Notes: generated by a model not told the origin, from the letters alone. Positions 1 to 17,058 are shown, counted from the stretch's first letter. The stretch is 20,973 bases of DNA from a virus (IMGVR_UViG_2778261696_000009:1-20973), one strand, 5' to 3'. Numbers and translations: made by a program.

Positions 1-411
1 ATGCCTGCCCCCGTCGTCCTGATCCTTGCGGCCGGGCGTGGAGAGCGCTTTCTCGCCTCCGGGGGAAATACCCATAAGTGTATCGGCTGGCGTCAGTCCC
101 CGGAGGTTGCGCCTTATCGCTGGCCATTTGAAGAAAACGGGAGAACTTTCGACCTTGCGATTGAACCGCAGATTACGACTAATGATCTGCGTCTGATGTT
201 GAGGCTGGCTCTTGCCGGCGGAGGAATAACAATTGCCACTCAGGAAACTTTCAGGCCATATATTGAAAGCGGTAAGCTTGTATCGCTGCTTGATGACTTT
301 CTTCCACAATTTCCGGGCTTCTATCTGTATTTCCCACAGCGTCGCAATATTGCACCAAAGCTCCGCGCCCTGATTGACTACGTCAAAGAATGGCGGCAGC
401 AATTGGTTTAA
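1..411 (+). CDS. LysR-family transcriptional regulator, C-terminal fragment (5' end lies outside the window)
   Basis: ORF open from the window edge to a stop at 409-411. The C-terminal stretch (ITIATQETFRPYIESGKLVSLLDDFLPQFPGFYLYFPQRRNIAPKLRALIDYV) looks like the tail of a LysR substrate-binding domain. The first ~40 codons may be frame artefact. Likely host chromosome flanking the inserted DNA. Confidence 0.55.
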   Translation: MPAPVVLILAAGRGERFLASGGNTHKCIGWRQSPEVAPYRWPFEENGRTFDLAIEPQITTNDLRLMLRLALAGGGITIATQETFRPYIESGKLVSLLDDFLPQFPGFYLYFPQRRNIAPKLRALIDYVKEWRQQLV

Positions 412-536
412 ATAGCTGCACCTGCACTGCCTGATGTCAGAACAGTATTTTGATGAATTGCCAAGGTTACAATGGCACAAATGCGGCACAGGAGGAAACG
501 TGGTGTATTTAAATATGGGGTAACTCTTTGATTTTA

Positions 537-553
537 ATGGTGCGATAATAGGA
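537..553. repeat. Candidate attL core: left copy of a 17/18-nt direct repeat (ATGGTGC-GATAATAGGA) flanking the P4-like element
   Basis: ATGGTGCGATAATAGGA at 537-553 recurs as ATGGTGCCGATAATAGGA at 8653-8670, with a single 1-nt indel. One copy lies just outside the crr end and the other just outside the integrase end, as expected for att sites of an integrated element. Confidence 0.4.
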
Positions 554-612
554 ATGAATATTAAAAGTTAAGACATTGATTTATAATAGATTATTATATT
601 CAAAAAATATAA

Positions 613-633
613 CTATACACATATCTATACACA
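613..633. promoter_or_regulatory. Tandem CTATACACA(T) motifs, candidate integrase arm-type binding sites (left end)
   Basis: CTATACACAT at 613-622 and CTATACACA at 625-633. The same 10-mer occurs at 8532-8541 and inverted at 8488-8497, next to the integrase start. Four copies sit inside the element ends, between the candidate att core and crr or int. Confidence 0.35.
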
Positions 634-670
634 CTGCGCGCATCGCTTGTTTTTTACACAATTAAAAGTA

Positions 671-977
671 AGAAAAAAGTTTTTTTTCGAAAGAACTGTT
701 CACACTGTTCACCTTTCTTTTGTCTCCTTTTATTTCAGAGTGATAGGTGGTGAATAATGGGTGAAGGGTGAACATTCGATTCTTCACCTCCGGCATTCTG
801 CCGGTGTGACTCATACCGGTGATTAATCCCCCATACTGAAATCACACAGGGAGAAAAAAAAGTTTTTTTTGATTTGATTGTTCACACTGTTCACCTTTCG
901 TTTTTCTCTTTTAATTTCAGTGTGATAACGGGTGAATACACGGTGAAGGGTGAACAGTGGATTGTTCACCTTCGGGG
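671..977. repeat. crr-like cis replication region: two ~125-bp direct repeats (671-800 and 851-977), each with TGTTCACC-type iterons in both orientations
   Basis: Both units start with an A-run/T-run (AGAAAAAAGTTTTTTTT) and share near-identical sequence. Exact TGTTCACC octamers at 706-713, 888-895 and 963-970; reverse complement GGTGAACA at 767-774 and 949-956; near-iterons TGTTCACA at 697-704 and 879-886. Located directly downstream of the alpha gene, as recalled for P4 crr. Confidence 0.75.
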
Positions 978-986
978 AATTCAGGG

Positions 987-1013
987 ATAAAAAAAGACCG
1001 GCAGATGCCGGTC
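987..1013 (-). terminator. Rho-independent terminator downstream of alpha
   Basis: On the minus strand: GC-rich hairpin GACCGGC-(4-nt loop)-GCCGGTC at 996-1013, immediately followed by a run of 7 T (plus-strand A-run 989-995). It sits 17 nt after the alpha stop. Confidence 0.6.
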
Positions 1014-1029
1014 AGATGAGTCATGATGG

Positions 1030-3363
1030 TCAGGTTGTCGCAGGGTCGTCACATTTTGGCAGCCAGTCGCCGTAGCTTTCCTCTTTCAGCGTCAGGTTGG
1101 TCTGTATCCCCTGTTTGGTATGGCGCTTCTCGTAATTCAGTCCGTATTCCTTCAGCATCACCGGCAGCCCCAGCCCGAACATTTTCAGACTGAGTACATT
1201 CCGGTAGCCGTTTGCCTCCATGTAGGCCAGATAGGCGTGATAGAGGTATTTACGGTAATTGCGCGGGATGATACTGGCGTTCCCCATATACATGCCGCTG
1301 GTCTGCGGCAGGGTTTCCAGATAGCCGATAAAATCAAACGTCGGGTCGGCATCCCGTTTGATGTTCAGCGCCTCGTATGAGTTCTGCTGGGACTGAAGCA
1401 GTGACCGGGCGAGCATCGGGTCGCTGAACTTCTGCATCAGGTGACGCACGATGACCGCCAGCTCGCGGGTGATTTTGTCCTTAAGCTGCGGGTCGCGCTC
1501 CTGCGGGGCTATCTGTTCCGGGAAGTGAATAATCACCCGCCGGCGTGACACGCCGCCGCTGCGGTCGGTGAAGCGCATCGGGTTATTGTTCACGGCCAGA
1601 ATTACCGCCGGGATATGCGTGGAGTATGCATCCCGGTATTTCGGGTCAACGGACACCGCATCGCCGCCGGTGATGGCCTTGAGTCCGGCACCGTCGCCGC
1701 TCCATTTTTCCTGGTCCGGCAGGCGTATCAGTGAGAAGCCAGTTAACGCGGCACGTTCACGCGGGGATTCCAGCGTCTCGATGGTGGCCGACGTGGCGTT
1801 ATCCTCCCCGGCCAGCAGGGTGGCTATTTCGGCCATGATACTTTTGCCGCTGCCGCCGGGACCGGTCACCTCCAGAAAGAGCTGCCAGTCGTAGCGGTTT
1901 GCCAGCACCATAAACAGTGCGGCCAGAATCACGTCGCGTTTTTCCGCACGACCACCGGCGGCACGGTCAAGCCAGCGCCAGAACGCGGGGGCGTGGGTTT
2001 CCAGCGTTTCCCCTTCCACCGGCGGGGTGAAATCCACATCGCACAGGGTGCGCATCCAGTGTGACGGACTGTGCGGGTGGAACGTGCCGCTCTGCGTGTC
2101 GAGCACGCCGTTACGAAAGCCAATCAGGCGGCGGGAGGGGGCTTCCTGCTGCGGAATAATCAGCTTCAGGGTGTCCACCACGGAGGCCACCTTCCCGGAG
2201 GAGAACGGCGCGCGCAGACGCTGAAACAGCCCGGCCACATCCCGGGCAAAGTCCTGTGGCGGCAGCACCTTCCAGACACCATTTTCATAGCGGGACAGAA
2301 GCTGGCCGTTGGCATCGACCGCGAGCGCCTCGCCGTAATGCTCATAGATACGCATGGCCTTTTCGCTGGTACTCATGGCGGAAAACTCCGCTTCGCTCAT
2401 GGTGTCGAACGGGCTTTCAGCCGGTGGCCGGATGGCATCATAAATGGCCTTACGGGTGGCTTCCCCGCCGTACTGCGTGAAGGCATCATTCCAGTCACCG
2501 AAGACCGGCGGCAGGGCAACAACACCTTCACACGCATCTGCGGCTGCGGCGGCTTTTGTCTGGCCGTCACCGCTGAGGTCACGGTCAGCAGCAAGGACAA
2601 TCTGACAGGCCGGATGCTTCTGCCGGGCAAGGCTGGCCAGAGAAAGGAGGTTCACGGAAGAAAGCGCCACCATCACCGTTTCACCGGTCAGGTGATGCAC
2701 GGTAAGTGCGGTCGCGTATCCCTCCGCTATCCACAGACGTTTTCCGGCCTGATTCTGTCCTTCAAGGGTGTGACAGGTGCCCCTGACCTGTCCGCCTTTC
2801 AGGGTGCGCTTACGGCCGTCAGCGCTGATTAACTGAAGGTTAACCAGTTCGCCGCTGTCGTCATACAGTGGCACCACAAGGTCACCGGCGCACCAGCTCA
2901 CGCCACCGGCTCTGTGTGTGCCGGTCAGCATCCGGCATTCCCGGCCGGGAAAACCCTTGCGGGTCAGGTAGGCGTTACCGGTTCCGGGACGGGTTTTCGC
3001 CATCAGGGTTTGTGCCAGTGCGGCGGCGTTCTTCCGGGCAGCGTCTGTTTCAGCACCGGCGGCGGCCGTCACTGCCGGGTCAGCCGGGGGCAGACAGCCG
3101 GTCACGGCAGCCACCTTTGCGGCCGCGTCGGACGGGGAAACACCAAACACCTTTTCAACCAGTTTCAGGCCGTCACCGGCACCACACTGATTGCAGTACC
3201 AGGTGCCGCGCCCCTCCCTGTCATCAAAACGGAAGCGGTCACTCCCGCCACAGACCGGACAGGGCTGATGACGGTTTTTCAGCACCTGAATCCCCAGCGC
3301 CGGGAGAATACGCGGCCAGTGGCCGAGCGCATGGCTGACGGTGGCGGTTACGTTCATTTTCAT
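1030..3363 (-). CDS. alpha: P4-type alpha protein: bifunctional DNA primase / helicase / origin-binding replication protein
   Basis: 777-aa ORF, the length recalled for P4 alpha. N-terminal zinc-binding motif (CPVCGG...CNQCG), Walker A P-loop (GPGGSGKS) mid-protein, and a C-terminal domain upstream of the TGTTCACC iterons it would bind. AAGGAG RBS 8 nt upstream of the ATG. GC-rich. Confidence 0.9.
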   Translation of the reverse strand: MKMNVTATVSHALGHWPRILPALGIQVLKNRHQPCPVCGGSDRFRFDDREGRGTWYCNQCGAGDGLKLVEKVFGVSPSDAAAKVAAVTGCLPPADPAVTAAAGAETDAARKNAAALAQTLMAKTRPGTGNAYLTRKGFPGRECRMLTGTHRAGGVSWCAGDLVVPLYDDSGELVNLQLISADGRKRTLKGGQVRGTCHTLEGQNQAGKRLWIAEGYATALTVHHLTGETVMVALSSVNLLSLASLARQKHPACQIVLAADRDLSGDGQTKAAAAADACEGVVALPPVFGDWNDAFTQYGGEATRKAIYDAIRPPAESPFDTMSEAEFSAMSTSEKAMRIYEHYGEALAVDANGQLLSRYENGVWKVLPPQDFARDVAGLFQRLRAPFSSGKVASVVDTLKLIIPQQEAPSRRLIGFRNGVLDTQSGTFHPHSPSHWMRTLCDVDFTPPVEGETLETHAPAFWRWLDRAAGGRAEKRDVILAALFMVLANRYDWQLFLEVTGPGGSGKSIMAEIATLLAGEDNATSATIETLESPRERAALTGFSLIRLPDQEKWSGDGAGLKAITGGDAVSVDPKYRDAYSTHIPAVILAVNNNPMRFTDRSGGVSRRRVIIHFPEQIAPQERDPQLKDKITRELAVIVRHLMQKFSDPMLARSLLQSQQNSYEALNIKRDADPTFDFIGYLETLPQTSGMYMGNASIIPRNYRKYLYHAYLAYMEANGYRNVLSLKMFGLGLPVMLKEYGLNYEKRHTKQGIQTNLTLKEESYGDWLPKCDDPATT

Positions 3364-3377
3364 GGTGTTGTTCTCCT

Positions 3378-3626
3378 TCAGTGCAGTACCGGCGCTTTTA
3401 TGTGACGGGCACAGAGTTCATCCATCACAACCAGCCCGAGAAAGGACAGCGACGGCGCGGCCTTCAGGGGGCCGGATTCCATTAAATCTTCCAGCAGGGC
3501 ACAGGCTATCTGACGCCCTTTTTCCTCACCGTGCTGGCGCAGATAAAAGCCCTCCAGCTCAGCGGCGATGGCCGCCTCCAGTGACTCAAGGGTGAGATGC
3601 GGGTAGCGGTGCTGACGTTCGCACAC
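3378..3626 (-). CDS. Small protein in the epsilon position, directly upstream of and co-oriented with alpha; identity unverified
   Basis: Stop lies 14 nt upstream of the alpha ATG and overlaps the alpha RBS, suggesting co-transcription. The start is uncertain: GTG at 3626 has no obvious RBS and internal ATGs exist. Called by position only. Confidence 0.35.
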
Positions 3627-3716
3627 GGTCAGCCAGGCACAGGCGACAGCGCGACGGTAAAGGGCAGCGCGTAAGACGGGCGGTACCGCGATTCACTGAC
3701 GTCAGCCTCCGGCAGT

Positions 3717-3998
3717 ATGAAACGCCCGAAAAGAATGCTTGTTACCGGATATTGTTGTCGGAGATGTAAAGGCCTTGCACTGTCAAGAACATCGCGGCGT
3801 CTGTCTCAGGAAGTCACCGAGCGTTTTTATGTGTGCACGGATCCGGGCTGTGGTCTGGTGTTTAAAACGCTTCAGACCATCAACCGCTTCATTGTCCGCC
3901 CGGTCACGCCGGACGAACTGGCAGAAAGCCTGCATGAAAAACAGGAACTGCCGCCAGTACGCTTAAAAACACAATCATATTCGCTGCGTCTGGAATGA
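3717..3998 (+). CDS. delta: Ogr/Delta-family zinc-finger late-gene transcriptional activator (single-domain)
   Basis: Cys4 pattern CRRC...(x22)...CTDPGC, with SRTSR and RFIVRP segments that align by eye with phage P2 Ogr (C..C...ARTSR...KERY.QC....C...RYIVKP). 93 aa as called; an alternative start is the ATG at 3735. Confidence 0.8.
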   Translation: MKRPKRMLVTGYCCRRCKGLALSRTSRRLSQEVTERFYVCTDPGCGLVFKTLQTINRFIVRPVTPDELAESLHEKQELPPVRLKTQSYSLRLE

Positions 3999-4071
3999 GG
4001 GCTGCCGGTTAACACCGGCCGTCGCCGCACACCGTATTTTTATTCTTCAGCATGATGAGAAAGAGATAACG

Positions 4072-4644
4072 ATGGAAAGCACAGCCTTACAGCAGGCCTT
4101 TGACACCTGTCAGAATAACAAAGCAGCATGGCTGCAACGCAAAAATGAGCTGGCAGCGGCCGAACAGGAATATCTGCGGCTTCTGTCAGGAGAAGGCAGA
4201 AACGTCAGCCGCCTGGACGAATTACGCAATATTATCGAAGTCAGAAAATGGCAGGTGAATCAGGCCGCCGGTCGTTATATTCGTTCGCATGAAGCCGTTC
4301 AGCACATCAGCATCCGCGACCGGCTGAATGATTTTATGCAGCAGCACGGCACAGCACTGGCGGCGGCACTGGCACCGGAGCTGATGGGCTACAGTGAGCT
4401 GACGGCCATTGCCCGAAACTGTGCCATACAGCGTGCCACAGATGCCCTGCGTGAAGCCCTTCTGTCCTGGCTTGCGAAGGGGGAAAAAATTAATTATTCC
4501 GCACAGGATAGCGACATTTTAACGACCATCGGATTCAGGCCTGACGCGGCTTCGGTGGATGACAGCCGTGAAAAATTCACCCCTGCGCAGAACATGATTT
4601 TTTCGCGTAAAAGTGCGCAACTGGCATCACGTCAGTCTGTGTAA
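4072..4644 (+). CDS. psu: Psu (polarity suppression protein; capsid decoration / Rho antagonist) of P4-like satellites
   Basis: 190-aa ORF, the length recalled for P4 Psu. Directly downstream of the delta-like gene as in the P4 sid-delta-psu operon (no sid here). GC-rich, helical-looking sequence. Confidence 0.8.
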   Translation: MESTALQQAFDTCQNNKAAWLQRKNELAAAEQEYLRLLSGEGRNVSRLDELRNIIEVRKWQVNQAAGRYIRSHEAVQHISIRDRLNDFMQQHGTALAAALAPELMGYSELTAIARNCAIQRATDALREALLSWLAKGEKINYSAQDSDILTTIGFRPDAASVDDSREKFTPAQNMIFSRKSAQLASRQSV

Positions 4645-4680
4645 AATTCCCCGAAAATCCGCCCGTTTTTACTGAAAAAA

Positions 4681-4710
4681 GCCATGCATCGATAAGGTGC
4701 ATGGCTTTGC
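4681..4710 (+). terminator. Possible terminator hairpin after psu
   Basis: Inverted repeat GCCATGCA-(9-nt loop)-TGCATGGC at 4681-4705, followed by TTT. Modest intrinsic-terminator features. Confidence 0.35.
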
Positions 4711-4735
4711 ATGCGTTTCCCTGCCTCATTTTCTG

Positions 4736-4763
4736 CAGACCGCGCCATTCCCGGCGCGGTCTG
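4736..4763. other. Perfect 11-bp GC-rich inverted repeat (CAGACCGCGCC / GGCGCGGTCTG) with a 6-nt loop
   Basis: Seen directly at 4736-4746 and 4753-4763. Not followed by a T-run, so not a classical terminator. Lies in the psu-cos interval, so it could be a packaging- or protein-binding element. Confidence 0.4.
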
Positions 4764-4808
4764 AGCGTGTCAGTGCAACTGCATTAAAACCGCCCCGCAA
4801 AGCGGGCG

Positions 4809-4827
4809 GGCGTGGCGGGGGGAGCAT
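4809..4827. other. Degenerate cos-like site (P2/P4 cohesive-end-like)
   Basis: GGCGTGGCGGGGGGAGCAT matches the recalled P2/P4 cohesive end GGCGAGGCGGGGAAAGCAC at most positions. It sits where cos lies in P4 (after psu) and coincides with the sharp GC-rich to AT-rich transition. Confidence 0.4.
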
Positions 4828-4902
4828 TGCGCGCTAAGGCTGATATTATAATTTTCTTTAATTCTATTTGGTATTTTGGCTTTATTCGTCAGAAGGAACG
4901 TT

Positions 4903-4937
4903 TAGAAATAGACCACTACAATGGATTGTAGCGGTCT
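4903..4937 (-). terminator. Terminator-like hairpin downstream of the int-RT-partner gene string
   Basis: 12-bp stem AGACCACTACAA / TTGTAGCGGTCT (one mismatch) with loop TGGA at 4910-4937. On the minus strand it is followed by ATTTCTAAA and begins about 10 nt after the partner-gene stop. Confidence 0.45.
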
Positions 4938-4946
4938 GCATGATAT

Positions 4947-5687
4947 CTAGCGTTGCATTTCAGTTACTATGAAATTTTCTTCTGTAATAGAATTCATTAT
5001 CTCAAAGTACAATTCTTCAGGTTGAATAAACGCCAACTCTTTGCAAAGGTTGACAATGGTATCACTATAAGTGATACCCATCCGAGGATTGAAAAGCTCA
5101 AATCTCTTGATGTTTCTTTTGTTTTTTGAGTAAAAGTTTAAAGTGAAATATATTAGCACCTGTCTAAGATCGTAAACACTAAACTTCCTATCTCCTGATT
5201 TTATTTCCACAAGAACATTTGAATAATAAATATCGCCATATGAATTATTTATTACTCCGCATCCATCGAATTGTGGAGACACTTCAATTTGGTTTTCCAT
5301 TCCATATCGAGACAAAATGTTTCTTGCTATTTCCCTTATGGCATTGTACTCAACCATGCTTAAGGGTAGCTTGAAGTTAGAACCGTAAGCGAACCGCTGT
5401 AGATATTCTTTTGTTTTTTCAAAAACAACCTGAAAATCAGCATTATGGAAGATATCATGTGCTGAAAGAATATTTCTGTCTAACGAATCATTCTGTATTG
5501 CCCTATATAAATTAAATGCGCACTCATTAACAAAGACGTTATTTGACCTATTAGCGCAGTCATCTAGAGGAGGATAAACGTCCTCGATGAGACTGCCGTT
5601 AATGATGCGTATGAAATTATTAGCATTTGGAAGCAATTGATTCCAAAATGAAGTGAATTTTCGAGAAAACGTTAATTCAGATATCAT
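4947..5687 (-). CDS. Partner protein of the reverse transcriptase (246 aa, unknown family; possible nuclease-like effector)
   Basis: AT-rich ORF whose ATG overlaps the RT stop as ATGA (5684-5687). No family recognised by eye. Contains GDIYYSNVLVEIKSG, i.e. D-x9-E-x-K in a hydrophobic beta-like context, weakly reminiscent of a PD-(D/E)xK nuclease core. Confidence 0.7.
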   Translation of the reverse strand: MISELTFSRKFTSFWNQLLPNANNFIRIINGSLIEDVYPPLDDCANRSNNVFVNECAFNLYRAIQNDSLDRNILSAHDIFHNADFQVVFEKTKEYLQRFAYGSNFKLPLSMVEYNAIREIARNILSRYGMENQIEVSPQFDGCGVINNSYGDIYYSNVLVEIKSGDRKFSVYDLRQVLIYFTLNFYSKNKRNIKRFELFNPRMGITYSDTIVNLCKELAFIQPEELYFEIMNSITEENFIVTEMQR

Positions 5688-7312
5688 AGCGCATCCTCAA
5701 GATTTCTTGCGGTATGCCTTTTACTTGCCCAATCCCTGTAAATCACCTCTACAAAGTTGAATGTTTTCTTATTATGCTCTCTCCAGTGCCGTCCTTCATC
5801 ACCTAAGATGTAACTGGAAACGATCAATAGTCTTCTCTGCAACGGATGCATTGCAGAGAAATTTTTTTTGATATCAGAAAGCCATGCGTAAGAATTAATT
5901 TTTGCCATTGACTGTGTAACTATGTTCTTGACTAAGATGCTTTCTGGATTGTTATTGTATATTTCACTAAGGATTAGGGTGGATTTTTCTGAATTTTCTT
6001 TTGAGAGCATTCGGGCTACATAGGCTAAGTTGAGCTCAGTACTCAAAATATATGAATCTTGTTTAATTAGTGCAGTTATTTTATCAAGAATAATATCTTT
6101 GGTTTCTGTGCTTAATTTTTGCCAGTTGGAGTTAGCTACTTGAATTATAGTTGTAAATATTGGATATAACTCATGCAAGTTATTAAACATTACTTTGAAA
6201 GCACTACTTATTATTTCATCTGATGTTGCTGAGAATGCCTTTATCAAATGCTTGCTAAAAGATTGGTTAATTTTTGATTTTTGTAACTCACTACTCAGCA
6301 TAGCTAACAAGTCAAAATCTTTTAAAGATTCCTTTATCTCTTCATATTCCTCTATCGCATTTGCTGAGTAAGGATCGAATCTTATAGGAAGACTCATAAA
6401 TTTAGCCTTCATAGGAGATTCTTCATCTTCATCATTACCATGCAACTTAGCTTTAGTTACTGAAAGGAACTCTTCTTTAGTAACAATATTGGTTTTTTGT
6501 TTCTGTAAAGTTAGCCCTTCATTTTCCATCAGTTTTTTACTAAGCAAAGTTAAAATCTTATGAGCATCCTCTCTAGAGTTACAAAAAATAACAAAGTCGT
6601 CGACATAACGCTTATAGTTGATTCTATTCATAGACAATAATTTATCAATAGAATCTAGAGCTAGTTCTGCTAATATTCTAGAGGCAGGACATCCAACTGG
6701 TACTCCATATGATTTTGTTTCACTAAATGTCTGTAGTAATTTCTTGATTTTCCCAGAGTAATCTTTATTGGGGTCGACTCTATCTAACGCATTTTCTAAA
6801 CGGTGGTGATAAATACGCGGATAGAAATCTGCTATATCGCATGTAAGTACATACTTTATTTCATCGTTAGAACATTCAGAGATACTGTCTTCTTGATATT
6901 TTCTCCAAGAGATCTCTTTATCAAAAAGAGAACCATCAGCAAGGTTTGGTTTAAAGCGATATGAATAAACCTGCGTTTTAGTAGATCTATTCCTTTCAAT
7001 ATCATCAGCGATTTTTAAAACTAACCCAAGAAAAAAAGCATTCCAGAATGGATCAATTTGGGTCGCCCACCTGTAACCATAATAACCAATACTTGAAAAG
7101 CTATTAATTATGTTTGGTGGAATCTCGATCCTTTTATTTTCAAAGTCATTAAATGTTTGCATTAATGCAGTTTTTACTTTCTCCTTATCATCTTCAAATA
7201 ACCGACTTTCAAATGGGTAAGGGAAAATATCTGTATCGCCGTGCTTTATAATATTTTCCAATGCAAGCTCAAAGCAATTTTCTAGTTTACTACTATCAAA
7301 CTCGTTACTCAT
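5684..7312 (-). CDS. Reverse transcriptase (Abi/DRT-like defence-associated RT: N-terminal RT domain plus ~250-aa C-terminal helical domain)
   Basis: RT palm motifs in canonical order: LTCDIADFYPRI (motif A-like), GVPVGCPASRILAELAL (motif B-like), YKRYVDDFVIF (motif C, YxDD box). The C-terminal half has no RT motifs and contains GRHWREH (R-x4-H). The ATG overlaps the integrase stop (AATGAGTAA) with AAGGAG 7 nt upstream. AT-rich. Confidence 0.85.
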   Translation of the reverse strand: MSNEFDSSKLENCFELALENIIKHGDTDIFPYPFESRLFEDDKEKVKTALMQTFNDFENKRIEIPPNIINSFSSIGYYGYRWATQIDPFWNAFFLGLVLKIADDIERNRSTKTQVYSYRFKPNLADGSLFDKEISWRKYQEDSISECSNDEIKYVLTCDIADFYPRIYHHRLENALDRVDPNKDYSGKIKKLLQTFSETKSYGVPVGCPASRILAELALDSIDKLLSMNRINYKRYVDDFVIFCNSREDAHKILTLLSKKLMENEGLTLQKQKTNIVTKEEFLSVTKAKLHGNDEDEESPMKAKFMSLPIRFDPYSANAIEEYEEIKESLKDFDLLAMLSSELQKSKINQSFSKHLIKAFSATSDEIISSAFKVMFNNLHELYPIFTTIIQVANSNWQKLSTETKDIILDKITALIKQDSYILSTELNLAYVARMLSKENSEKSTLILSEIYNNNPESILVKNIVTQSMAKINSYAWLSDIKKNFSAMHPLQRRLLIVSSYILGDEGRHWREHNKKTFNFVEVIYRDWASKRHTARNLEDAL

Positions 7313-8489
7313 TCACATTCTCCTTAATAAAAATATAATCTGAATACCACTGCATCATATCACGGCGTTTATCAATATATTGAGCATGATTATACGTACC
7401 TCTAATATTATTCTTATCTATATGAGCAAGCTGTATTTCTATCCAAGCCGAATCATATCCTTTTTCGTGGAGGATAGTAGATAAGGAATGTCGAAATCCA
7501 TGACCAGTAAGTTTTCCACCATAACCAATACGCTTGATAACTTGGTTAATACTCGCCTCACTCATAGGCTTGTTCGGATCGTTCCGCCCCGGAAAAACAT
7601 AACTATACTTCCCTGTCATCATCTTGAGTTCATTTAGCAAATCTAACGCTTGAGTCGACAAAGGCACAAGGTGTGATCTGCGCATTTTCATCCTTTCAGC
7701 AGGAATTTCCCAAATAGCGTTATCTAAATCAAATTCTGACCATAATGCCGCACGTAATTCGATGGTTCTAACACCTGTAATCATGAGCAATTTCGTGGCA
7801 ATCAGGACAAGCCGACTTCCGGTATATCCGTTTAAGGCGCGAAGAAAATCAGGTATCTCATTAGCCTTTAAGAACGGGAAATGATTTGATTGGTGTACAT
7901 TGAGGGCGCTTGAAAGATCCGCAGCAGGGTTAAACTCAGCCCTTCCAGTAGCAATGGCATAGCGGAAAACTTCTGAGCATCGCTGCCGAACTTTGCGCAT
8001 TTTTTCTAATGCACCGCGCTTTTCGATTTTACGCAGCACATTAAGCAGTTCTAGCGGTTTAATCTCTCCCACTGGCCTTGTTCCCACATAAGGAAAAATG
8101 TCGTTCTTAAACGCTTCCATGATGTCTGATGCATATCCCGCCGACCATTTGGTAGACTTCTGTTGATGCCACTCTCTGGCTATCTTTTCGAAGGCGTTCT
8201 CTGACTCTGTTTGCAGAGCCAGCTTTTGCTCTTTTCGAACCTCACTAGGGTTCTTTCCTTCTGCCACAAGTTTTCGAGCTTCATCACGACGGGAACGAGC
8301 ATCAGCAAGAGTGATCGTTGGGTAAACACCAAGCGAGATCATTTTGGGTTTACCGGCATAGCGATAACGAAATCGCCAGCTTTTACTTCCATTTGGCTCT
8401 ACAAGTAAAGACAACCCTTGCCCATCCCCAAGTGTATAGGCTTTAGCTTCAGGTTTAGCACGGCGAATCTGCATATCATTTAGGGGCAT
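7305..8489 (-). CDS. int: P4-type tyrosine integrase (site-specific recombinase)
   Basis: 394 aa. N-terminal arm-binding-like region, then a tyrosine-recombinase catalytic region with R (LMITGVRTIELRA), HGFRHSLST (H-x-x-R) and a C-terminal RGTYNHAQY tyrosine region. Located at the element edge next to the candidate attR. Confidence 0.9.
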   Translation of the reverse strand: MPLNDMQIRRAKPEAKAYTLGDGQGLSLLVEPNGSKSWRFRYRYAGKPKMISLGVYPTITLADARSRRDEARKLVAEGKNPSEVRKEQKLALQTESENAFEKIAREWHQQKSTKWSAGYASDIMEAFKNDIFPYVGTRPVGEIKPLELLNVLRKIEKRGALEKMRKVRQRCSEVFRYAIATGRAEFNPAADLSSALNVHQSNHFPFLKANEIPDFLRALNGYTGSRLVLIATKLLMITGVRTIELRAALWSEFDLDNAIWEIPAERMKMRRSHLVPLSTQALDLLNELKMMTGKYSYVFPGRNDPNKPMSEASINQVIKRIGYGGKLTGHGFRHSLSTILHEKGYDSAWIEIQLAHIDKNNIRGTYNHAQYIDKRRDMMQWYSDYIFIKENVNE

Positions 8490-8541
8490 GTGTATAGAAT
8501 TCCAAAATCGAACAGGAACATATACATAATCCTATACACAT
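8488..8541. promoter_or_regulatory. Int-proximal CTATACACAT motifs (one inverted copy overlapping the int start, one direct copy), candidate arm-type sites and int promoter region
   Basis: ATGTGTATAG at 8488-8497 is the reverse complement of CTATACACAT; a direct copy is at 8532-8541 and a related ACATATACATA at 8519-8529. Same motif as at 613-633. Confidence 0.35.
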
Positions 8542-8652
8542 TTAGTACTGGATTCTACTGGAAAGTTATGGACTAATACGAACAGTAAAAACAAAAAATC
8601 TTTTATAAAACAGTGCGGTTATGGATAAATACGGATGTTTGAAGAAGTGGAG

Positions 8653-8670
8653 ATGGTGCCGATAATAGGA
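8653..8670. repeat. Candidate attR core: right copy of the 17/18-nt direct repeat
   Basis: ATGGTGCCGATAATAGGA at 8653-8670 versus ATGGTGCGATAATAGGA at 537-553. It lies ~165 bp beyond the int start. Confidence 0.4.
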
Positions 8671-8727
8671 GTAAAACACTCGATTAATCTCGTGTTAATG
8701 CCATCACCTACGACCATTACTAATTGA

Positions 8728-10092
8728 TTGAATCTTATAGAAAAATCATCATTTTCTATGCGTCACAATCAATTTTCACATTACAAACGCTCCGACACTT
8801 TAGCCGGAGATTTTATGAGATACAAGCCTAACCAATACTTAATCTGTGATTCTTACGGTAACTACTATTTAAGGATCACGCTGCCTGTGTATATGCAGCC
8901 CTTTTTTGAAGGAAAAAGGACGTTTGTCAGAAGTCTACACACAAGTAATCTTCGTGTTGCACGTAGAAAGCGTGATCAGATTGCAGATGAATACCATTGC
9001 TTACGGGAGAGTGTTGCCCCTGTAAACAGCACAATAGAAAACACGCTGGAACTGTTACGCAGTAAGGCTAAATACGCCAAAACAGCTACCAGAGTGCAAG
9101 ATACAGCGTCTTCGTGTCCGTCATTGCTTAAAATTCTTGAAATCTACCTGACAATTAACAGCACGAAGAAGAAGCCAGCCACTTTAGCTAAGGCAAGAAA
9201 AGCGGTAGAGATGTTTCTCTCCTACCGTAAAAAGCCTGATATTGCATTGCAAGATGTAAGCCGCACCACTGTTACAGGCTGGATTGAACACATGCAAAAA
9301 ACTCTTTCACAACAATCAATTGCAAATTATATCAGTCCAATGGCCCAGCTATGGGAATTAGCTTCATCACGTTACCACGATGCGCCAGAAAGGGCGCTCT
9401 CCCCCTGGCGAGGGCATAGGCTTGATGTGGCACAAAGTAGAGAGAGCTACGAGGCATTTTCTAACAAAGAGCTATTGCAGGTGTTGCAAGTATTTTCCGG
9501 TAATTCAGCAGAAAACAAAGAAATGACGGCTTTGTGTCTTATCGGTTTATATACAGGTATGCGGATCAATGAGATAGCAAGTCTCACAATAGACGATGTG
9601 AAAGAGATCGAAGGTGTGCTGTGTTTTGAAATCACACAGGGAAAGACGAAAGCTGCGGCACGTGTTGTGCCTGTGCATAACCTTATCACTCCGTTGGTGT
9701 TGTCGCTGCGTGAAAAGCCTCACAATGGCTTTTTGTTCTATCACGCCAGCATTACAGAACGTGCTGACGGTAAACGCTCTACGTGGCATACACAACGATT
9801 TACAAGAGCTAAACGAAAGGCTTTAGGGGAAAAGGGAACAGAAAGGAAAGTGTTTCATTCTCTGAGACACGGAGTAGCACAGCTTCTTGATCGAAATCAA
9901 ATTCCAGAAGACAGGATCGCCCTTCTCCTGGGCCATACACGCGGCAATACAGAAACATTCCGCACATATAGCAAAAATGCAGCTTCTCCAATAGAGCTTA
10001 AAAAATATATTGAGCTTTTACGCTACCCTGAAATAGAGAAAGGCTTATCAATCAATAAAAAATCAAATTTAAGGCGTAAAACAACGCTATAG
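8728..10092 (+). CDS. Second tyrosine recombinase / phage-type integrase (likely true start at ATG 8815)
   Basis: C-terminal catalytic signatures: YTGMRINEIASL (R), HSLRHGVAQLL (H-x-x-R), LLGHTRG and FRTYSK (Tyr). The in-frame ATG at 8815 has a GGAG RBS 5 nt upstream. Divergent from the P4-type int. Confidence 0.8.
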   Translation: MNLIEKSSFSMRHNQFSHYKRSDTLAGDFMRYKPNQYLICDSYGNYYLRITLPVYMQPFFEGKRTFVRSLHTSNLRVARRKRDQIADEYHCLRESVAPVNSTIENTLELLRSKAKYAKTATRVQDTASSCPSLLKILEIYLTINSTKKKPATLAKARKAVEMFLSYRKKPDIALQDVSRTTVTGWIEHMQKTLSQQSIANYISPMAQLWELASSRYHDAPERALSPWRGHRLDVAQSRESYEAFSNKELLQVLQVFSGNSAENKEMTALCLIGLYTGMRINEIASLTIDDVKEIEGVLCFEITQGKTKAAARVVPVHNLITPLVLSLREKPHNGFLFYHASITERADGKRSTWHTQRFTRAKRKALGEKGTERKVFHSLRHGVAQLLDRNQIPEDRIALLLGHTRGNTETFRTYSKNAASPIELKKYIELLRYPEIEKGLSINKKSNLRRKTTL

Positions 10093-10172
10093 ACGTAATA
10101 AAGAGGCTTCAATATAGACTGATGCCTCTTTTATGATTATCTCGTTACAGAGCGTTTCATAGGCGTTTAAGG

Positions 10173-10850
10173 CTATTGTTTAAATACTGGCGTTACAACG
10201 TCTTGCCCTGGGCTTTTTTGATTTTTCTGTTCTGTTGTATTTACCTGCATTTTAACCTGGCCTCCTACAGATTTATTTGGTGCTGTTTTTACCGCAATTG
10301 CGCTTGTAGTTGCTTTAGAGACAAGACGGATTTGCTCAAAATCAAGAGTAAACAATAGGCTTTCGCTTGCTTCTTCTTCGTAAGACATGCCAACTAACAC
10401 AACGTTGTCATAATTTTTTAACTCAGTGACAAGTAGGAAAGGTTGGCGACTGTCCATCAACTGATTTAGGTATTCAAGCATAAGCATACGTCGATTGCCG
10501 TTAATTCCAGCATTCTTAATCATATCAGGATTGAGCTTCAATACGGTTTCAGAGATACGCCCTTGTAATGTGAACTTGTTATTCCGTATTTGAACATGAT
10601 CACTAACTTCTGATCCTGATTCGACGGCATAGCTTGTAACGTCCGCATTTCTGCTAACTTTCGTCGATTCCACGCTATCAAATGATAATGCCTGGTAGTC
10701 ATTGTAAGCAGCATTTGCACCACTGCCGAGATTAGAGGTAATGATCGCAAAGCCGTTACCCCCTTTGGTTGTTCTACCGTTGCTATCGTTGCTTGTGCTG
10801 TTGATTTTCGCCTCAGTCGGGCGACCAATGGTTAACGGACCCATTGCCAT
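10173..10850 (-). CDS. Hypothetical protein (225 aa), last gene of the structural-looking operon
   Basis: ORF with AAGGA RBS upstream of the ATG at 10850; Ser/Thr/Asn/Gly-rich N-terminus. Follows the 613-aa gene on the same strand. Function not recognisable by eye. Confidence 0.5.
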   Translation of the reverse strand: MAMGPLTIGRPTEAKINSTSNDSNGRTTKGGNGFAIITSNLGSGANAAYNDYQALSFDSVESTKVSRNADVTSYAVESGSEVSDHVQIRNNKFTLQGRISETVLKLNPDMIKNAGINGNRRMLMLEYLNQLMDSRQPFLLVTELKNYDNVVLVGMSYEEEASESLLFTLDFEQIRLVSKATTSAIAVKTAPNKSVGGQVKMQVNTTEQKNQKSPGQDVVTPVFKQ

Positions 10851-10897
10851 AATTTGTAATCCTTATTTAAGGGGGCTAAACAGCCCCACAGTGATGA

Positions 10898-12739
10898 TTA
10901 ATAGGTTGACCCGCCTGACATAACACCCAGCGTTAATAGCTTGCTAAACTCAGCGGAGGATGCCTTTGATTTGAAGTCGATAAATTCGCTCAATCGTCCG
11001 GTGTCTGATTCGATAGTTAGCGGCACTTCTGCATTTACTTGTAATTCTGGATTGAAGTTAATAACAGGTGCAAAGGTGTAAGAAGGAGCCTTGAAAGCTT
11101 GTTGTGCTGCACTCTGTTTCAGATTTGCAATGTTTTGTCCTTCGAGACTGTATTGATTTACAGCCTGCGCCCCACCTACCGTTTCTTCTGGCATAAACCA
11201 GCTTTTAATAGTGTTAACCAGGGAATTGCTGTTATCTGGCTTAGTTGTTCCGGTGCCAGCGCCTTTATATTGATCAGGAGTGAGATTAGAAAGATTCTGC
11301 TTCATTCCTTCGTTAGATAGTGGCGGTGCATCCCCTAAATTCTTCTGAATAGCTTCCGTCTTCTCGTCGTTTTTCATCAGCCAGTTGATTGTTTTCATTA
11401 CGGCGTTAACCAATCCGCCGATAGCCTCGCCTAATTTGGTAAACATTGGCAGCATTGCAACCATGCTCTTTTTAAACTCTTCAATCACTTTCGGATCAAG
11501 AGATTTCATAAAGCCATCAACAAAGGCGATCCCTTGTGAGTCAGAAAGCCCACTAAGTGCATTATTCAGTTCACGGAATTTAATAACGCTTTCCTGTTGT
11601 GCCTGTGTTACCCAGCGCCCTGATTCTCGTTGTTCTCGTGCTGATTGTTCCACTTCTTTAGCGGAGCGTGTCCAGTATTTAGAGGTGAGCATCAAATCAT
11701 CAGCCAGATCTTCCAGACGACTACCGATTTGTGCATCTGAATAGCCTTTCTTCACCATTCCCTGAACTGCTTTACTAACCAGACCAGCCGGATTATCAGC
11801 AAAGTCTTTTAGATCCTTTTTAGTTAAGAATCCTTCATTCATTAAAGTATTGATGCCGCTATCGCCGCCCTTCCATTCACCTTTGCCTGTTTTTTTATCG
11901 ACTACATATTCAGCCTCATCATAGCTTTTGGTTGCACGCTCACGCACATCTTTCATCTGATCGAGATACTTACGTTTACCTTGATCCCCCATCATTGAAT
12001 CAACGCCGTTTTTGTAGGCCCATTGCTCAATATTGTTCATCTGGTTAACGTCTACACCGCCCAGCTTCGCACGGCTATACAATTCACCCAGCGTTTCAGC
12101 ATTCGCAAAGCTGTTAGTAACAAATTCAGAGGCTTTGCTCATAGCCATATACGTAGCGCCAGCGCCTAAGCCACCCAGCATAACAGCCGCAGCACCGCCG
12201 CCAATACTCCCGCTACCCTTAACAGGTGCATAGGCTTTAGCGTGAGCGTTACGATTGCCATTAATCTTACGTTGTTGCTGTTGTAGGCGTTTCATTTGGC
12301 TATTCATACGTGCCAGACTAATAGCTCCTCTTTCATATTGGAGGGCAATTTCTCTAGCCTGTGCAATAGCTTTATATTGTTCCGCTACAGAAAGGCGGTG
12401 CAATGCACTAATGCTTGATCCAACGTCTAACAGTTTTAAGTCTGCCTTCTCTTTGCGTGCTGCCAGGGCTTTTTGTTCTCTTGCAACTACACGTTGAGCG
12501 GCTAATTGTGCTTTAGCATTGGCTTTATCTGCCTGTGCTTGCTTTTTAGCAATATCGTCTACGTCTTTTTTTGCTTTAGAAGTTGATTGTTTATGTGTCT
12601 TAACACGCAATTCTATATCTTTCACCGCCGCCATTTGTTTACGAAGTTTTTCTACTTCTGCTTTTGCTTTCTCTAATGATGGTCGATCAACCTGGAAGGT
12701 GACAACGTTTGATAAGCGGCTGACGTTAAGTTCTAACAT
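10898..12739 (-). CDS. Large coiled-coil / glycine-rich protein (613 aa), tape-measure-like or scaffold-like
   Basis: N-terminal ~150 aa strongly charged Lys/Ala/Gln-rich heptad-like sequence, then a Gly-rich hydrophobic segment (GSGSIGGGAAAVMLGGLGAGATYMAMS). This architecture is typical of phage tape-measure or internal virion proteins; the assignment is tentative. Confidence 0.6.
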   Translation of the reverse strand: MLELNVSRLSNVVTFQVDRPSLEKAKAEVEKLRKQMAAVKDIELRVKTHKQSTSKAKKDVDDIAKKQAQADKANAKAQLAAQRVVAREQKALAARKEKADLKLLDVGSSISALHRLSVAEQYKAIAQAREIALQYERGAISLARMNSQMKRLQQQQRKINGNRNAHAKAYAPVKGSGSIGGGAAAVMLGGLGAGATYMAMSKASEFVTNSFANAETLGELYSRAKLGGVDVNQMNNIEQWAYKNGVDSMMGDQGKRKYLDQMKDVRERATKSYDEAEYVVDKKTGKGEWKGGDSGINTLMNEGFLTKKDLKDFADNPAGLVSKAVQGMVKKGYSDAQIGSRLEDLADDLMLTSKYWTRSAKEVEQSAREQRESGRWVTQAQQESVIKFRELNNALSGLSDSQGIAFVDGFMKSLDPKVIEEFKKSMVAMLPMFTKLGEAIGGLVNAVMKTINWLMKNDEKTEAIQKNLGDAPPLSNEGMKQNLSNLTPDQYKGAGTGTTKPDNSNSLVNTIKSWFMPEETVGGAQAVNQYSLEGQNIANLKQSAAQQAFKAPSYTFAPVINFNPELQVNAEVPLTIESDTGRLSEFIDFKSKASSAEFSKLLTLGVMSGGSTY

Positions 12740-12773
12740 GCTAATTGTTTCCCTGTATTATGATTGTTGTTTA

Positions 12774-12971
12774 TTATTGTTTTTTAGAGCAATAGTATTG
12801 AATTGCTTCGAAAGTGCTGCACCCAGTCTGAAAGACACGCTGGCGCACATTATTTGCATCAATTTCTAAAAGGCGGCAAAGCGCCGATGTGTTTATAACT
12901 GATTCCTCGCTAATAGCTGCCAGTTCTTTTACAGCCTTAAGAATAAAGGATTGTGAGTTTTCTGTATTCAT
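12774..12971 (-). CDS. Small hypothetical protein (65 aa)
   Basis: ORF between the capsid-like and 613-aa genes on the same strand; weak RBS; no recognisable motif. Confidence 0.35.
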   Translation of the reverse strand: MNTENSQSFILKAVKELAAISEESVINTSALCRLLEIDANNVRQRVFQTGCSTFEAIQYYCSKKQ

Positions 12972-13122
12972 TGGTTTTCTCTCACATATATATTTTTATT
13001 TGGGTTTGTAGACAGTAGAAAAACAAAAAGGGCAAAGAGATTCGTTACTGTATTTGCGCCTACAGGTTAGTTAATCCCTTTACCCTTATTGCCCCGATGG
13101 GGAATCGTCTATTAACGCTTTA

Positions 13123-14154
13123 TTACGCAGCAGATCCGAAGATGATAGCTTGCGGAATGTTGTTTACTGGCAGATAAGATGTCTCAGTAACCACAGATGG
13201 GAATTGGAATTCATCCTTGATTAGATATTGGTGATGCAACACGGCATCTTGACCTAACTCAGCATGACGCACACCAACGCCGCTATGAAGCTGGTAACAC
13301 TGTGCCGCTTTATCCATTACCGGAACAATTGCGAAACCGTTCTCTCCGATGTGAGCAACAATCTCAGGAAACATTGACACATCAATAACAGTGATCCCAC
13401 CAATCTGGAAAGAGTCATAGGCTGGGTTAGAATCAACCATACGGGTAAACAGGGCCGTAGCACTCGCATCGCCTGCATATTTCACCATGTCACTGATCAG
13501 CGGGTTAGATGACAAACCATCAGCAGCAGTGCCAGCAGCAAAGATAATTACACCAGTTCGCTTTGCAGCAAGACCAGACCCCAGCTTTTCACTCTGTAAG
13601 CGCACCGCTTTACGAATAGCAAGGAACGGGTTAACAGTAGTCGATGCAAAGTCGATAGCGGGTACCGTGGTTTTAGCCTGACCGTCGAGGAAGTCGAGAT
13701 CACCTTGTCCGGCATATTCAGATTCAACTTTCAGGCCCAGCAGCGCGGTAATCAGATCCACTTCAACACGGTTTGCGTGTGAACGGTAATGAGCCTCAGA
13801 GAAATCATTAACCGCTACCAGCATAGCATCAGAACGGTTTGGATATTGGCGGCTGTATTGTTCCAGGTCACGAGAAGTAACAGCGTTAATACTGCCGACG
13901 TGTTTCATCTGGAAAAGTTTGTTTGACCATTCCTGACGTTTAGAGGCGTTCCAGTCGCTTTGAGCGTAAGGCGAGGTTTCCCCAGCTACCTGCACAAACT
14001 GATCAATCAGGTCGGTAAGAAGAATGCTGTTTTCTGTATGATATTGCACATCGAACAGATCGAGATTAGTAATCAGGGTATTAAGTGCATTCTCATAAGC
14101 AAATGGAGTTACTACCGCAGTATTAACGCCAAAATATGTTGATAAATCATTCAT
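13123..14154 (-). CDS. Putative major capsid-like protein (343 aa); identity tentative
   Basis: Strong RBS (AAGGAAA, 8-nt spacer). Size and position immediately after a ~127-aa decoration-like gene mirror the lambda-type D-E (decoration, major capsid) arrangement. No direct sequence match could be verified by eye. Confidence 0.55.
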   Translation of the reverse strand: MNDLSTYFGVNTAVVTPFAYENALNTLITNLDLFDVQYHTENSILLTDLIDQFVQVAGETSPYAQSDWNASKRQEWSNKLFQMKHVGSINAVTSRDLEQYSRQYPNRSDAMLVAVNDFSEAHYRSHANRVEVDLITALLGLKVESEYAGQGDLDFLDGQAKTTVPAIDFASTTVNPFLAIRKAVRLQSEKLGSGLAAKRTGVIIFAAGTAADGLSSNPLISDMVKYAGDASATALFTRMVDSNPAYDSFQIGGITVIDVSMFPEIVAHIGENGFAIVPVMDKAAQCYQLHSGVGVRHAELGQDAVLHHQYLIKDEFQFPSVVTETSYLPVNNIPQAIIFGSAA

Positions 14155-14168
14155 TATTATTTTCCTTG

Positions 14169-14552
14169 TTAAGTCGTAGGGATCGCAAGTTCTTCATAAC
14201 CAGCAATTACAAAGCCGAGAGATTGCAGTTTTGCAATAACACTTGCCTTTTCCATGCTGTTAAATTCAATCCCATCTTCAGCCAGAATAACGAAAGTAGG
14301 ATGTGCAACCACTACGCTTTCCTGTCCTTCATAAGCCGGTTCAACTACTACGTGAGCAATATCAGATGCGGTTGTTGCTTTGGTGCCATCGGCTTTCAGC
14401 AAAGCCCCGACAATAAGATCGTCAGTGAGAGGTGAAGCCAGTTTGACGAGGCGATCTTGCAGCACTGGATCAGCAGCGTAAGCTACTACCTTACAGCGTG
14501 AACGGGAGTTATCCGCATTCACTGCTTTTAATTTTCCATATGGGTTAGCCAT
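14169..14552 (-). CDS. Putative head-decoration-like / small structural protein (127 aa); identity tentative
   Basis: RBS AAAGGAAAA embedded in the end of the upstream small gene (tight coupling). Ala/Val/Gly-rich beta-looking sequence; size and position are consistent with a capsid decoration protein. Confidence 0.5.
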   Translation of the reverse strand: MANPYGKLKAVNADNSRSRCKVVAYAADPVLQDRLVKLASPLTDDLIVGALLKADGTKATTASDIAHVVVEPAYEGQESVVVAHPTFVILAEDGIEFNSMEKASVIAKLQSLGFVIAGYEELAIPTT

Positions 14553-14556
14553 AAGA

Positions 14557-14754
14557 TTATTTTCCTTTCAGTTGTTTAATTTTAGATTTAAGGGCATCAG
14601 CAAGACTAACCGCATCAGCCGATTTAAATAATTGAGCAGTGGTAGAACGAAGACTTTCGGGAGTAACTCCCAACAGTGCGGCAACCTTAATGAGGTTTTC
14701 ATCACTAACAATCATCGTTTCCCCGTCTTTGCTGATAATCATTTCTTGTTTCAT
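14557..14754 (-). CDS. Small protein (66 aa from ATG 14754; the track calls a TTG start at 14796), first gene of the structural-looking operon
   Basis: ATG at 14754 is preceded by AGGAAC. Its stop overlaps the RBS of the next gene. Confidence 0.45.
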   Translation of the reverse strand: MKQEMIISKDGETMIVSDENLIKVAALLGVTPESLRSTTAQLFKSADAVSLADALKSKIKQLKGK

Positions 14755-15738: not shown

Positions 15739-16038
15739 TCATTTAGAGAAAATAGCACTTTTTGCTAAATCATCTACTAATTGCTGAATCTCTTCACTTG
15801 CAACCTTTAACGTGGTGGCGATGTCTGTGATGATTTGATTACACTGTTTTGCATCGTCCTCTGATACGCTCACCAGAGAGATAAAATCGTCAAGGCTTAC
15901 ATTCACCTTCATTAAGCTAATAACGCATTGAGAGAGCGTGTAATCGCATAAATCTGAATAGGCTTGATTTATTCTTGTTTGTAGTGAGATAGTCAGATCT
16001 AAAAGTTGTTCCATTGCATTGCTAATATCTTCTTCCAT
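15739..16038 (-). CDS. Small hypothetical acidic protein (99 aa)
   Basis: ATG overlaps the stop of the upstream gene (TAATG); AAGGAG RBS 9 nt upstream. Last gene of a minus-strand string of small ORFs. Confidence 0.5.
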   Translation of the reverse strand: MEEDISNAMEQLLDLTISLQTRINQAYSDLCDYTLSQCVISLMKVNVSLDDFISLVSVSEDDAKQCNQIITDIATTLKVASEEIQQLVDDLAKSAIFSK

Positions 16039-16240: not shown

Positions 16241-16298
16241 TTATTTTTCCTTTTTTGAATATTTTCATTGGGCGCTTATACATACACCCATCATTTTA

Positions 16299-17049: not shown

Positions 17050-17058
17050 TTATTCTCC

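Follow-up and report, generated by a model that had tools for sequence, protein, structure and literature searches.

Organization of the locus

The window considered here is a viral contig of 20,973 nucleotides (IMGVR_UViG_2778261696_000009:1-20973), which is E. coli chromosome with a P4-like satellite in its left part. From the left, it encodes the primase-helicase alpha (777 aa; 1030-3363, minus strand), which was taken from the ORF list and is annotated as a primase-helicase in Escherichia coli ECCRA-119; a C-terminal remnant of the ogr/Delta-like zinc-finger activator delta (3717-3998, plus strand), annotated as incomplete ogr/Delta-like in E. coli O177:H21, which has the same deletion; and an intact psu gene (190 aa; 4072-4644, plus strand), with Psu 95-100% identical in 73 viral contigs. 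The cargo lies on the minus strand at 4947-7312 in the cos-adjacent hotspot and is a DRT8 pair, composed of a PD-(D/E)XK-type DRT8 partner (4947-5687, minus strand; PADLOC RTasPDDEXK, E = 5.5e-69) and the Drt8 reverse transcriptase (5684-7312, minus strand; PADLOC Drt8, E = 4.9e-166; Pfam RVT_1). The cassette overlaps by 8 nt the gene for a thrW-specific tyrosine integrase of 394 aa (7305-8489, minus strand; Pfam Arm-DNA-bind_3, Phage_int_M, and Phage_integrase). The order psu, cos, cargo, int, with cos at the junction of the mature genome ends, agrees with the psu-cos-hotspot-int order of P4-like satellites in PMC9122126, which also gives the hotspot context of the cargo. A defence hotspot adjoining cos is described in PMC9122126, PMC8628076, and PMC13586616.

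The right end of the satellite is marked by an approximate att core, a copy of the thrW 3' end, at 8654-8672. Window positions 1-8672 align to positions 12468-21136 of the O177:H21 locus (L398), and the alignment ends inside the tRNA-Thr gene at 21118-21193 of that locus; in other genomes, the satellite integrase gene directly adjoins tRNA-Thr. No tRNA was found in the window with ARAGORN, and the absence of a whole tRNA gene is explained by another island that follows the att core. This island (8673-20973), a second integrative element, separates the satellite from thrW. Among its products are an integrase of 454 aa, a resolvase, a Dit-like tail protein, a 613-aa tape-measure-like protein, an HTH protein resembling replication initiators, and a 343-aa protein that weakly matches a major head protein; many small ORFs have no match. 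In 131 genomes, 80% or more of the island is present. The element is not P2-like and is therefore not an obvious helper. A different island of 12.7 kb comes right after the satellite int gene in ECCRA-119 (L002 22033-34724; also in L397) and encodes DUF4062, HTH, recombinase, and TIGR04141 proteins, a second protein with a reverse-transcriptase domain, and a large integrase. The occurrence of different islands after int indicates that several elements are stacked in tandem at thrW.

Identification of the cos site

The 19-nt segment GGCGTGGCGGGGGGAGCAT is located at 4809-4827 on the plus strand and occurs once in the window. The first-pass annotation had described it as resembling, without being identical to, the P2/P4 cohesive end, and had placed it between psu and the cargo. 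Both statements are borne out. The segment lies between the end of psu at 4644 and the start of the cargo at 4947, and alignment with P2, P4, and their relatives, which had been recommended as a check, showed it to be collinear with the P4 ends. Position 11624, where the P4 record ends on the right, falls on window position 4808, with 98.8% identity over the last 249 bp, and a longer P4 alignment of 1,125 bp that ends at the same position has 99.0% identity (blastn). The first bases of the P4 record, which form the cohesive end, are GGCGAGGCGGGGAAAGCAC. Since the ends of the P4 record meet at 4808|4809, window 4809-4827 is the positional homologue of the 19-nt cohesive-end segment of P4 and P2. 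The two 19-mers are equal at 15 of 19 positions, and the window differs at position 5 (A>T; 4813), at positions 13 and 14 (AA>GG; 4821-4822), and at position 19 (C>T; 4827). The allele is thus T5-G13G14-T19.

The sequences at the two nicks are those of a cos site. The left heptamer GCGGGCG (4802-4808; consensus GCGGGCR) is near-invariant in 78 P2-like and 75 P4-like cos sites, and the right heptamer TGCGCGC (4828-4834) is invariant or almost so across the natural cos sites sampled. The reverse complement of the right heptamer, GCGCGCA, mirrors the left heptamer, which suggests a symmetric arrangement around the cut, and the left nick itself is placed, from the ends of the P4 record, presumably between 4808 and 4809. 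Both heptamers belong to a core common to P2-like helper phages (4769-4834), which was delimited with blastn (85-91% identity to Peduoviridae) and with a column profile of 78 sites. A '55-bp core' common to P2 and P4, with 19-nt ends, is mentioned in PMC5694545, PMC9594776, and PMC2231350, which cite Ziermann and Calendar (1990), and the window core is its counterpart.

A mismatch scan of the window with the P2/P4 allele and with the GGCGTGGCGGGGGGAGCAT allele, each with up to 3 mismatches, gave no second cos-like sequence. The scan thus found no 'true' cos elsewhere in the window, which the first-pass annotation had named as grounds for abandoning its proposal. The resemblance could in principle be fortuitous and have no role in packaging, for which only the four mismatches to the P2/P4 19-mer speak. 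The collinearity with the P4 ends, with 99% identity on the left, the conservation of a 57-bp core across hundreds of elements, and the chance expectation of 0.01 for a 19-mer with up to 3 mismatches refute this reading, whose probability is practically negligible. It is nearly certain that the site at 4809-4827 is the cos of the P4-like satellite. The kind of element is already known, and this is the expected packaging site, at the expected place beside a known defence hotspot.

Natural variation of the cohesive-end segment

Cos sites were sampled in three ways. A pattern scan of viral contigs, in which positions 5, 13, 14, and 19 were left open, recovered ten alleles, with A, T, or G at position 5, C or T at position 19, and AA, AT, AG, TA, or GG at positions 13-14. 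A second sample was anchored on Psu, without bias on the cos sequence itself, and yielded 75 satellite sites, of which 60 were canonical, 10 had the allele GGCGTGGCGGGGAGAGCAT (T-AG-T at positions 5, 13-14, and 19), a few were mosaics, and one had GG; the last is on the contig that gave the only exact viral match to the 19-mer. Variation in these 75 sites was restricted to positions 5, 13, 14, and 19. The third sample took the 186-type portal protein gpQ as its anchor and provided 78 helper sites, which were nearly evenly divided at position 5 (A/T, 40:38), position 14 (A/T, 41:37), and position 19 (T/C, 41:37).

Positions 5, 14, and 19 are thus common natural polymorphisms, and only G13 (4821) is unusual. 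All 78 helper sites anchored on the portal have A at position 13, as do 74 of the 75 satellite sites anchored on Psu, and the only other departure seen was a T in a P2-like locus (L062). In the 57-bp core (4778-4834), almost every remaining column was invariant in the 78 helper sites and equal to the window, which has the consensus base or a common variant in all core columns other than 13. The near-invariant columns of the approximately 55-bp core are all matched by the window with the exceptions of 4821 and of 4808, where the window has G, the P2/P4-type base, and the flanking heptamers GCGGGCR and TGCGCGC are present at 4802-4808 and 4828-4834, respectively.

The overhang as a whole is not identical to a known working allele, and the exact 19-mer is restricted to this satellite lineage. 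Its distance is one nucleotide (A13>G) to GGCGTGGCGGGGAGAGCAT, two to the 186 type, and four to P2/P4, and T5 together with T19 is the state of phage 186. The allele GGCGTGGCGGGGAGAGCAT is found beside portal/terminase genes in at least 15 P2-like loci and beside psu in more than 80 P4-like loci. It is dominant in a P4-like clade with Psu about 62% identical and occurs in some P2-like phages; it has A13 and occurs with a variety of cargos and backbones, against one for the GG allele. At thrW of E. coli strain 1444, this A13 form is present with an identical left arm and another cargo. An initial impression that G14 is confined to satellites, which came from the first 120 viral-contig matches (0 of about 92 P2-like loci), was discarded when a targeted scan found the at least 15 P2-like loci.

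The first-pass annotation had called the site degenerate. With positions 5, 14, and 19 varying naturally, the 57-bp core and both heptamers intact, and GGCGTGGCGGGGAGAGCAT one base away, that description is not supported, and the 19-mer is best read from these comparisons as a rare allele, a natural allele plus A13>G, rather than as a decayed site. Position 13 is near-fixed, so G13 could reduce nicking. An alternative reading is therefore that A13>G weakened or abolished cleavage, leaving the cos effectively dead and the DRT8 island chromosomally fixed, with its spread vertical or by host recombination. The near-invariance of position 13 is in its favour, but the cos of phiRSA1, a more distant member of the P2 family, is GGTGAGGCGGGGTCCAAC and differs strongly across positions 13-19 (PMC5694545), which indicates that this part of the overhang is not universally constrained. 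The dead-cos reading is considered unlikely, though it deserves some weight; we favour, with modest assurance, the reading that the G13 allele would still be cleaved by ordinary helpers.

Mosaic overhangs were also observed, namely T-AA-C (L133), A-AG-T (L128, L136, and L400), A-AA-T (L189), and T-AG-C (L235 and L242), and these resemble recombinants within the 19 nt. They could have arisen through annealing of cohesive ends from two different elements and repair of the mismatches. In O177:H21 (L398 17300-17320), the run of six G residues in the 19-mer is shortened to five, so that the overhang would be 18 nt long; either a sequencing error in the homopolymer or true slippage may account for this, and the same assembly is also frameshifted in yagP and in the RT gene.

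Inverted repeats and a possible extended cos architecture

A perfect 11-bp inverted repeat, CAGACCGCGCC and GGCGCGGTCTG, is located at 4736-4746 and 4753-4763 with the 6-nt loop ATTCCC. It begins 92 nt past the psu stop codon, lies 46-73 bp upstream of the 19-mer, and has its centre about 59 bp left of the cut. The first-pass annotation had reported this repeat, and its presence was confirmed; a perfect inverted repeat of at least 11 bp arose in 1/2000 dinucleotide shuffles of the 302-nt spacer between psu and the cargo. A 171-nt region folds better than 200/200 shuffles (z = -3.56). Two further structures flank the repeat. The first is another 11-bp palindrome at 4678-4708 (AAAGCCATGCA, a 9-nt loop, and TGCATGGCTTT), centred about 115 bp left of the cut, with an A-run upstream and a T-rich stretch downstream; a role as a bidirectional terminator, as an outer cos element, or as both is possible. 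The second is an imperfect GC hairpin at 4790-4809 (CCGCCCCGC-AAA-GCGGGCGG), which abuts the left nick and is conserved in the cos profiles. It is terminator-like on the minus strand, where it runs from 4809 to 4790 and has the tail TTTTAATGCA, and it could stop transcription of the cargo/int operon from entering psu.

Cos regions of 147 unique P4-like and 156 unique P2-like elements were aligned in register with the cut. The cross-clade alignment was too shifted for clean pair counts, and position-registered profiles were used for the palindromes. The palindrome GCGCC(AG)...(CT)GGCGC is present about 59 bp left of the cut in both the P4-like and the P2-like consensus, and the window repeat is the local form of it. 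Perfect inverted repeats of at least 5 bp with the centre 66 to 55 bp left of the cut, corresponding to window 4736-4763, were found in 73% + 17% of P4-like and 35% + 26% of P2-like regions. For a centre 120 to 103 bp left (window 4678-4708), the values were 92-97% for P4-like and 28-37% for P2-like regions, and for a centre 36 to 31 bp left, which corresponds to TGCA-AC-TGCA at window 4774-4783, they were 33% and 69%. In addition, window 4675-4817 is 72-75% identical to P2-like Salmonella and Escherichia phages (blastn). The homology of the spacer and the in-register palindromes in helpers suggest that the 4736-4763 repeat is part of an extended cos architecture. We would place this palindrome in the packaging signal only tentatively, at slightly less than even odds.

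Within the repeat, the right arm GGCGCGGYCTGAG is the best-conserved part, and in close relatives, the outer stem has changed on one side only, without compensation, so the hairpin as such is not clearly selected. An unlikely alternative is that the repeat acts in RNA, ending or stabilising the sid-delta-psu late transcript, and is unrelated to packaging. The strong GC-rich 11-bp stem and its position 92 nt past psu would suit such a role. A T-run after the stem is absent on both strands, however, and the terminator scan reports only the 4809-4790 site on the minus strand, so that a Rho-independent terminator at 4736-4763 was rejected; the 4678-4708 hairpin, with its A-run and T-rich flanks, is the better terminator candidate, and P2-like phages with other neighbouring genes or orientation have the palindrome at an equal distance from the cut. 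No Rfam family matched anywhere in the window at the gathering threshold. The 4736-4763 palindrome is accordingly described here as a putative protein-recognition palindrome, rather than an RNA hairpin or terminator, that might be bound by the small terminase subunit or a host factor.

Comparison with other cos sites

The cos of P4 (X51522 / NC_001609, junction 11624/1) likewise lies downstream of psu and has two upstream palindromes and the left heptamer GCGGGCG, as in the window. Apart from the four overhang positions, it differs from the window to the right of the overhang (CGCGCGC in P4, TGCGCGC in the window), in the inverted repeat, which has one mismatch in P4 (CAAACC...) and is perfect in the window, and in the cargo, which is gop-beta-cII in P4 and DRT8 in the window. 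The cos of 186-type P2-like phages (Eganvirus; vB_YpM_MDG94-186 and vB_EcoM-613R3) is GGCGTGGCGGGGAAAGCAT. It shares T5, T19, and the TGCGCGC at the right with the window, with 90.9% identity over 4769-4834, but has AA at positions 13-14 in place of GG, the left heptamer GCGGGCA, and an upstream palindrome of another form (TCTGGC...GCCAGA or GCGCC...GGCGC). P2/P4 DNA is packaged from monomeric circles (PMC2231350), and a cos fragment alone renders a plasmid packageable by P2 (PMC9942202, PMC2231350).

The window also invites comparison with a more remote system. Lambda-type cos sites consist of a nicking site, cosN, and an adjacent terminase-binding region, cosB. The resemblance lies in the staggered-nick site, the symmetric flanks, and the one-sided conserved repeats or palindromes, whereas the lambda-type overhang is 12 nt and that of the window 19 nt. 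The analogy is functional and implies no homology, and the window palindromes would be putative binding elements in its terms.

State of the satellite copy

A 3.2-kb internal deletion has its junction at 3684/3685, where P4 7292-10499 is missing, as determined with blastn against P4 and against the intact copy in ECCRA-119 (L002). To the left of the junction, window 673-3685 is 97.9% identical to P4 4291-7291, and TA microhomology is present at the junction itself. Lost with this segment are the first part of orf106, orf151, epsilon, cI, vis/orf88, ori, sid, and the N-terminal half of delta. The core set of a complete P4-like satellite is int, alpha, epsilon/ash, alpA/vis, sid, delta, and psu (PMC8628076), of which the window keeps int, alpha, and psu; intact sister copies carry the P4-like core genes. 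With ori, cI, epsilon, vis, sid, and half of delta lost, this copy cannot excise, replicate, or activate a helper alone, and its cos is stranded beside the retained DRT8 cassette and integrase gene.

The same deletion junction was found in 31/5426 complete E. coli genomes, while about two thirds of the GG copies are without it. In four inspected copies (ECCRA-119, 19451123, JNE141411, and NCCP 15734), the satellite genes are all annotated without pseudogene flags. Independent deletions were seen in strain H3 (L402 8775-9592), from which the N-terminal part of alpha through epsilon is gone, and in strain OHT76-1 (L404 9290-10184), where the region from chromosomal paoA to ash is gone and the deletion crosses the left end of the satellite. 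At least three independent deletions in which psu-cos-DRT8-int is kept indicate that the lineage is being eroded in several hosts.

These data bear in two ways on the dead-cos reading introduced above. The recurrence of independent deletions (the window type in 31 genomes, H3, and OHT76-1) would be expected from it, and also fits a resident, domesticated element; the four copies annotated as intact and the two thirds of GG copies without the window deletion argue against it. The first-pass annotation had raised the possibility that the satellite is decaying and no longer packageable. The decay is real, in that the 3.2-kb deletion is shared by 31 genomes, but it has not proceeded through cos, the core of which is intact.

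Distribution of the allele and search for a matching helper

The exact sequence of window 4760-4834 is present in 100/5,426 complete E. coli genomes, 98 of which also carry the sequence that continues into the cargo. Every G13 copy examined is beside the DRT8 defence cassette and a thrW-type integrase gene, and this restriction of GG to one cargo/integrase lineage at one chromosomal site is a further point in favour of the dead-cos reading. The DRT8 genes are identical in all GG copies inspected except O177:H21 (L398), in which a shorter RT is annotated. Of 60 GG genomes, 32 hold one or more additional cos-like sites.

It had been proposed in the first-pass annotation that the substitutions match a helper of diverged terminase specificity. 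The grounds for an allele matched to a correspondingly shifted helper are that cos alleles track clades, that T-AG-T dominates a divergent P4-like clade and is also found in a P2-like subset with terminase 81-87% identical to the 186 type, and that co-resident helpers may exist in the 32/60 genomes with a further site. However, the viral-contig collection yielded no P2-like locus that has GG at 13-14, and the exact 19-mer occurs there on one contig only, that of the same satellite. A scan of one genome per species across 185,579 species gave no helper with GG; its only match was a 25-nt cos-pattern match in Planobispora takensis (L207 2489-2513), which has no cos flanks and was judged to be chance in GC-rich DNA, for which about 0.6 chance matches are expected by estimate. 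A search for a cultured phage record at least 95% identical to a T-AG-T helper core found none. The absence of G13 from P2-like viral contigs, together with a chance-only match across species, leaves the proposal without evidence for a helper with a matching diverged cos, and such a helper is considered very improbable. Phage P4, with A5 and C19, is packaged by phage 186, with T5 and T19. The use of 186 as a helper for P4 implies that differences in the overhang need not confer specificity.

A broader reading is that cos alleles may split helpers and satellites into compatibility groups, that the G13 lineage is cut preferentially by an unsampled helper terminase variant or escapes competition, and that the two palindromes left of the cut, at about 59 and 115 bp, are shared cosB-like elements that capture the helper terminase. 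As a whole, this combination is speculative and distinctly unlikely. A related possibility is that the mosaic 19-mers are footprints of exchange between elements by mismatched cohesive-end annealing, which, if true, would be a mechanism behind the cos-adjacent defence hotspot.

Probable mobility and proposed recombination at cos

No difference separates strains JNE141411 and NCCP 15734 over approximately 4.2 kb, a block that extends from the psu-cos spacer across cos, DRT8, and int up to and including tRNA-Thr. The left part of the satellite is 1.5-4.5% diverged between them, their chromosomes are about 1% apart on the pao side and 2.6% apart in proA, and divergence resumes about 140 bp past thrW. 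In a comparison of L401 (NCCP 15734; 6038-12876) with L403, the crossover was located in the 3' part of psu or in the spacer. The block ends on the right at the attachment site and on the left shortly before cos, which is as expected if an incoming satellite integrated at thrW and then recombined homologously with a resident one. G13 is present in both copies, so the transfer is later than the mutation, and the identical block in diverged flanks points to horizontal transfer after G13 arose. Transfer by conjugation or generalised transduction, with the recombination endpoint at thrW by chance, would be another route to the same pattern.

The identical block, with thrW at its right, in backgrounds whose flanks are 1-4.5% diverged stands against the dead-cos reading, but ECCRA-119 and O177:H21, which are nearly alike in the 3-kb flank beside the satellite (flank 0.35% diverged, 1 SNP in the adjacent 3 kb), are compatible with vertical descent. 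Circumstantially, the cos(GG)-DRT8-int-thrW block shared by two diverged E. coli backgrounds supports a cos that would still work, and speaks against the remaining part of the first-pass suggestion, namely that the element is no longer packageable.

Among close P4 relatives, a single 60-nt left arm occurs with five 19-mer alleles. Such a switch of allele at the cos boundary with the left arm unchanged fits the import of an allele with the adjacent cargo by recombination at cos. Cos has been proposed as a breakpoint for exchange of the adjacent defence hotspot (PMC9122126).

Proposed function and significance

The reading that we prefer, with a probability of about 0.7, is that a P4-like E. coli satellite integrated at thrW has its complete cos at window 4675-4834, with a rare and probably functional allele, in a copy that is otherwise decaying. 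The T-AG-T allele would have been imported with the adjacent cargo by recombination at cos, and A13>G would have followed. Once the satellite has excised and replicated, its conserved core would be recognised by the gpM/gpP terminase of a P2-like helper, as is established for P2/P4 and presumed for this element. The enzyme would then nick the top strand at 4808/4809 and, in a staggered fashion, the bottom strand at 4827/4828, leaving 19-nt 5' cohesive ends, and the DNA would be packaged into helper-derived capsids.

The significance of the site is modest, as it is mostly an expected cos of a P4-like satellite. For users of DRT8 as a mobile system, it is relevant that one third of the copies, including that of the window, are without genes for replication, immunity, and helper exploitation. 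With positions 5, 14, and 19 free and position 13 almost fixed, G13 is a natural test case for the tolerance of the P2-family terminase. The switches at the cos boundary and the identical block in diverged backbones fit the published idea that cos is a breakpoint for the swapping of defence cargo.
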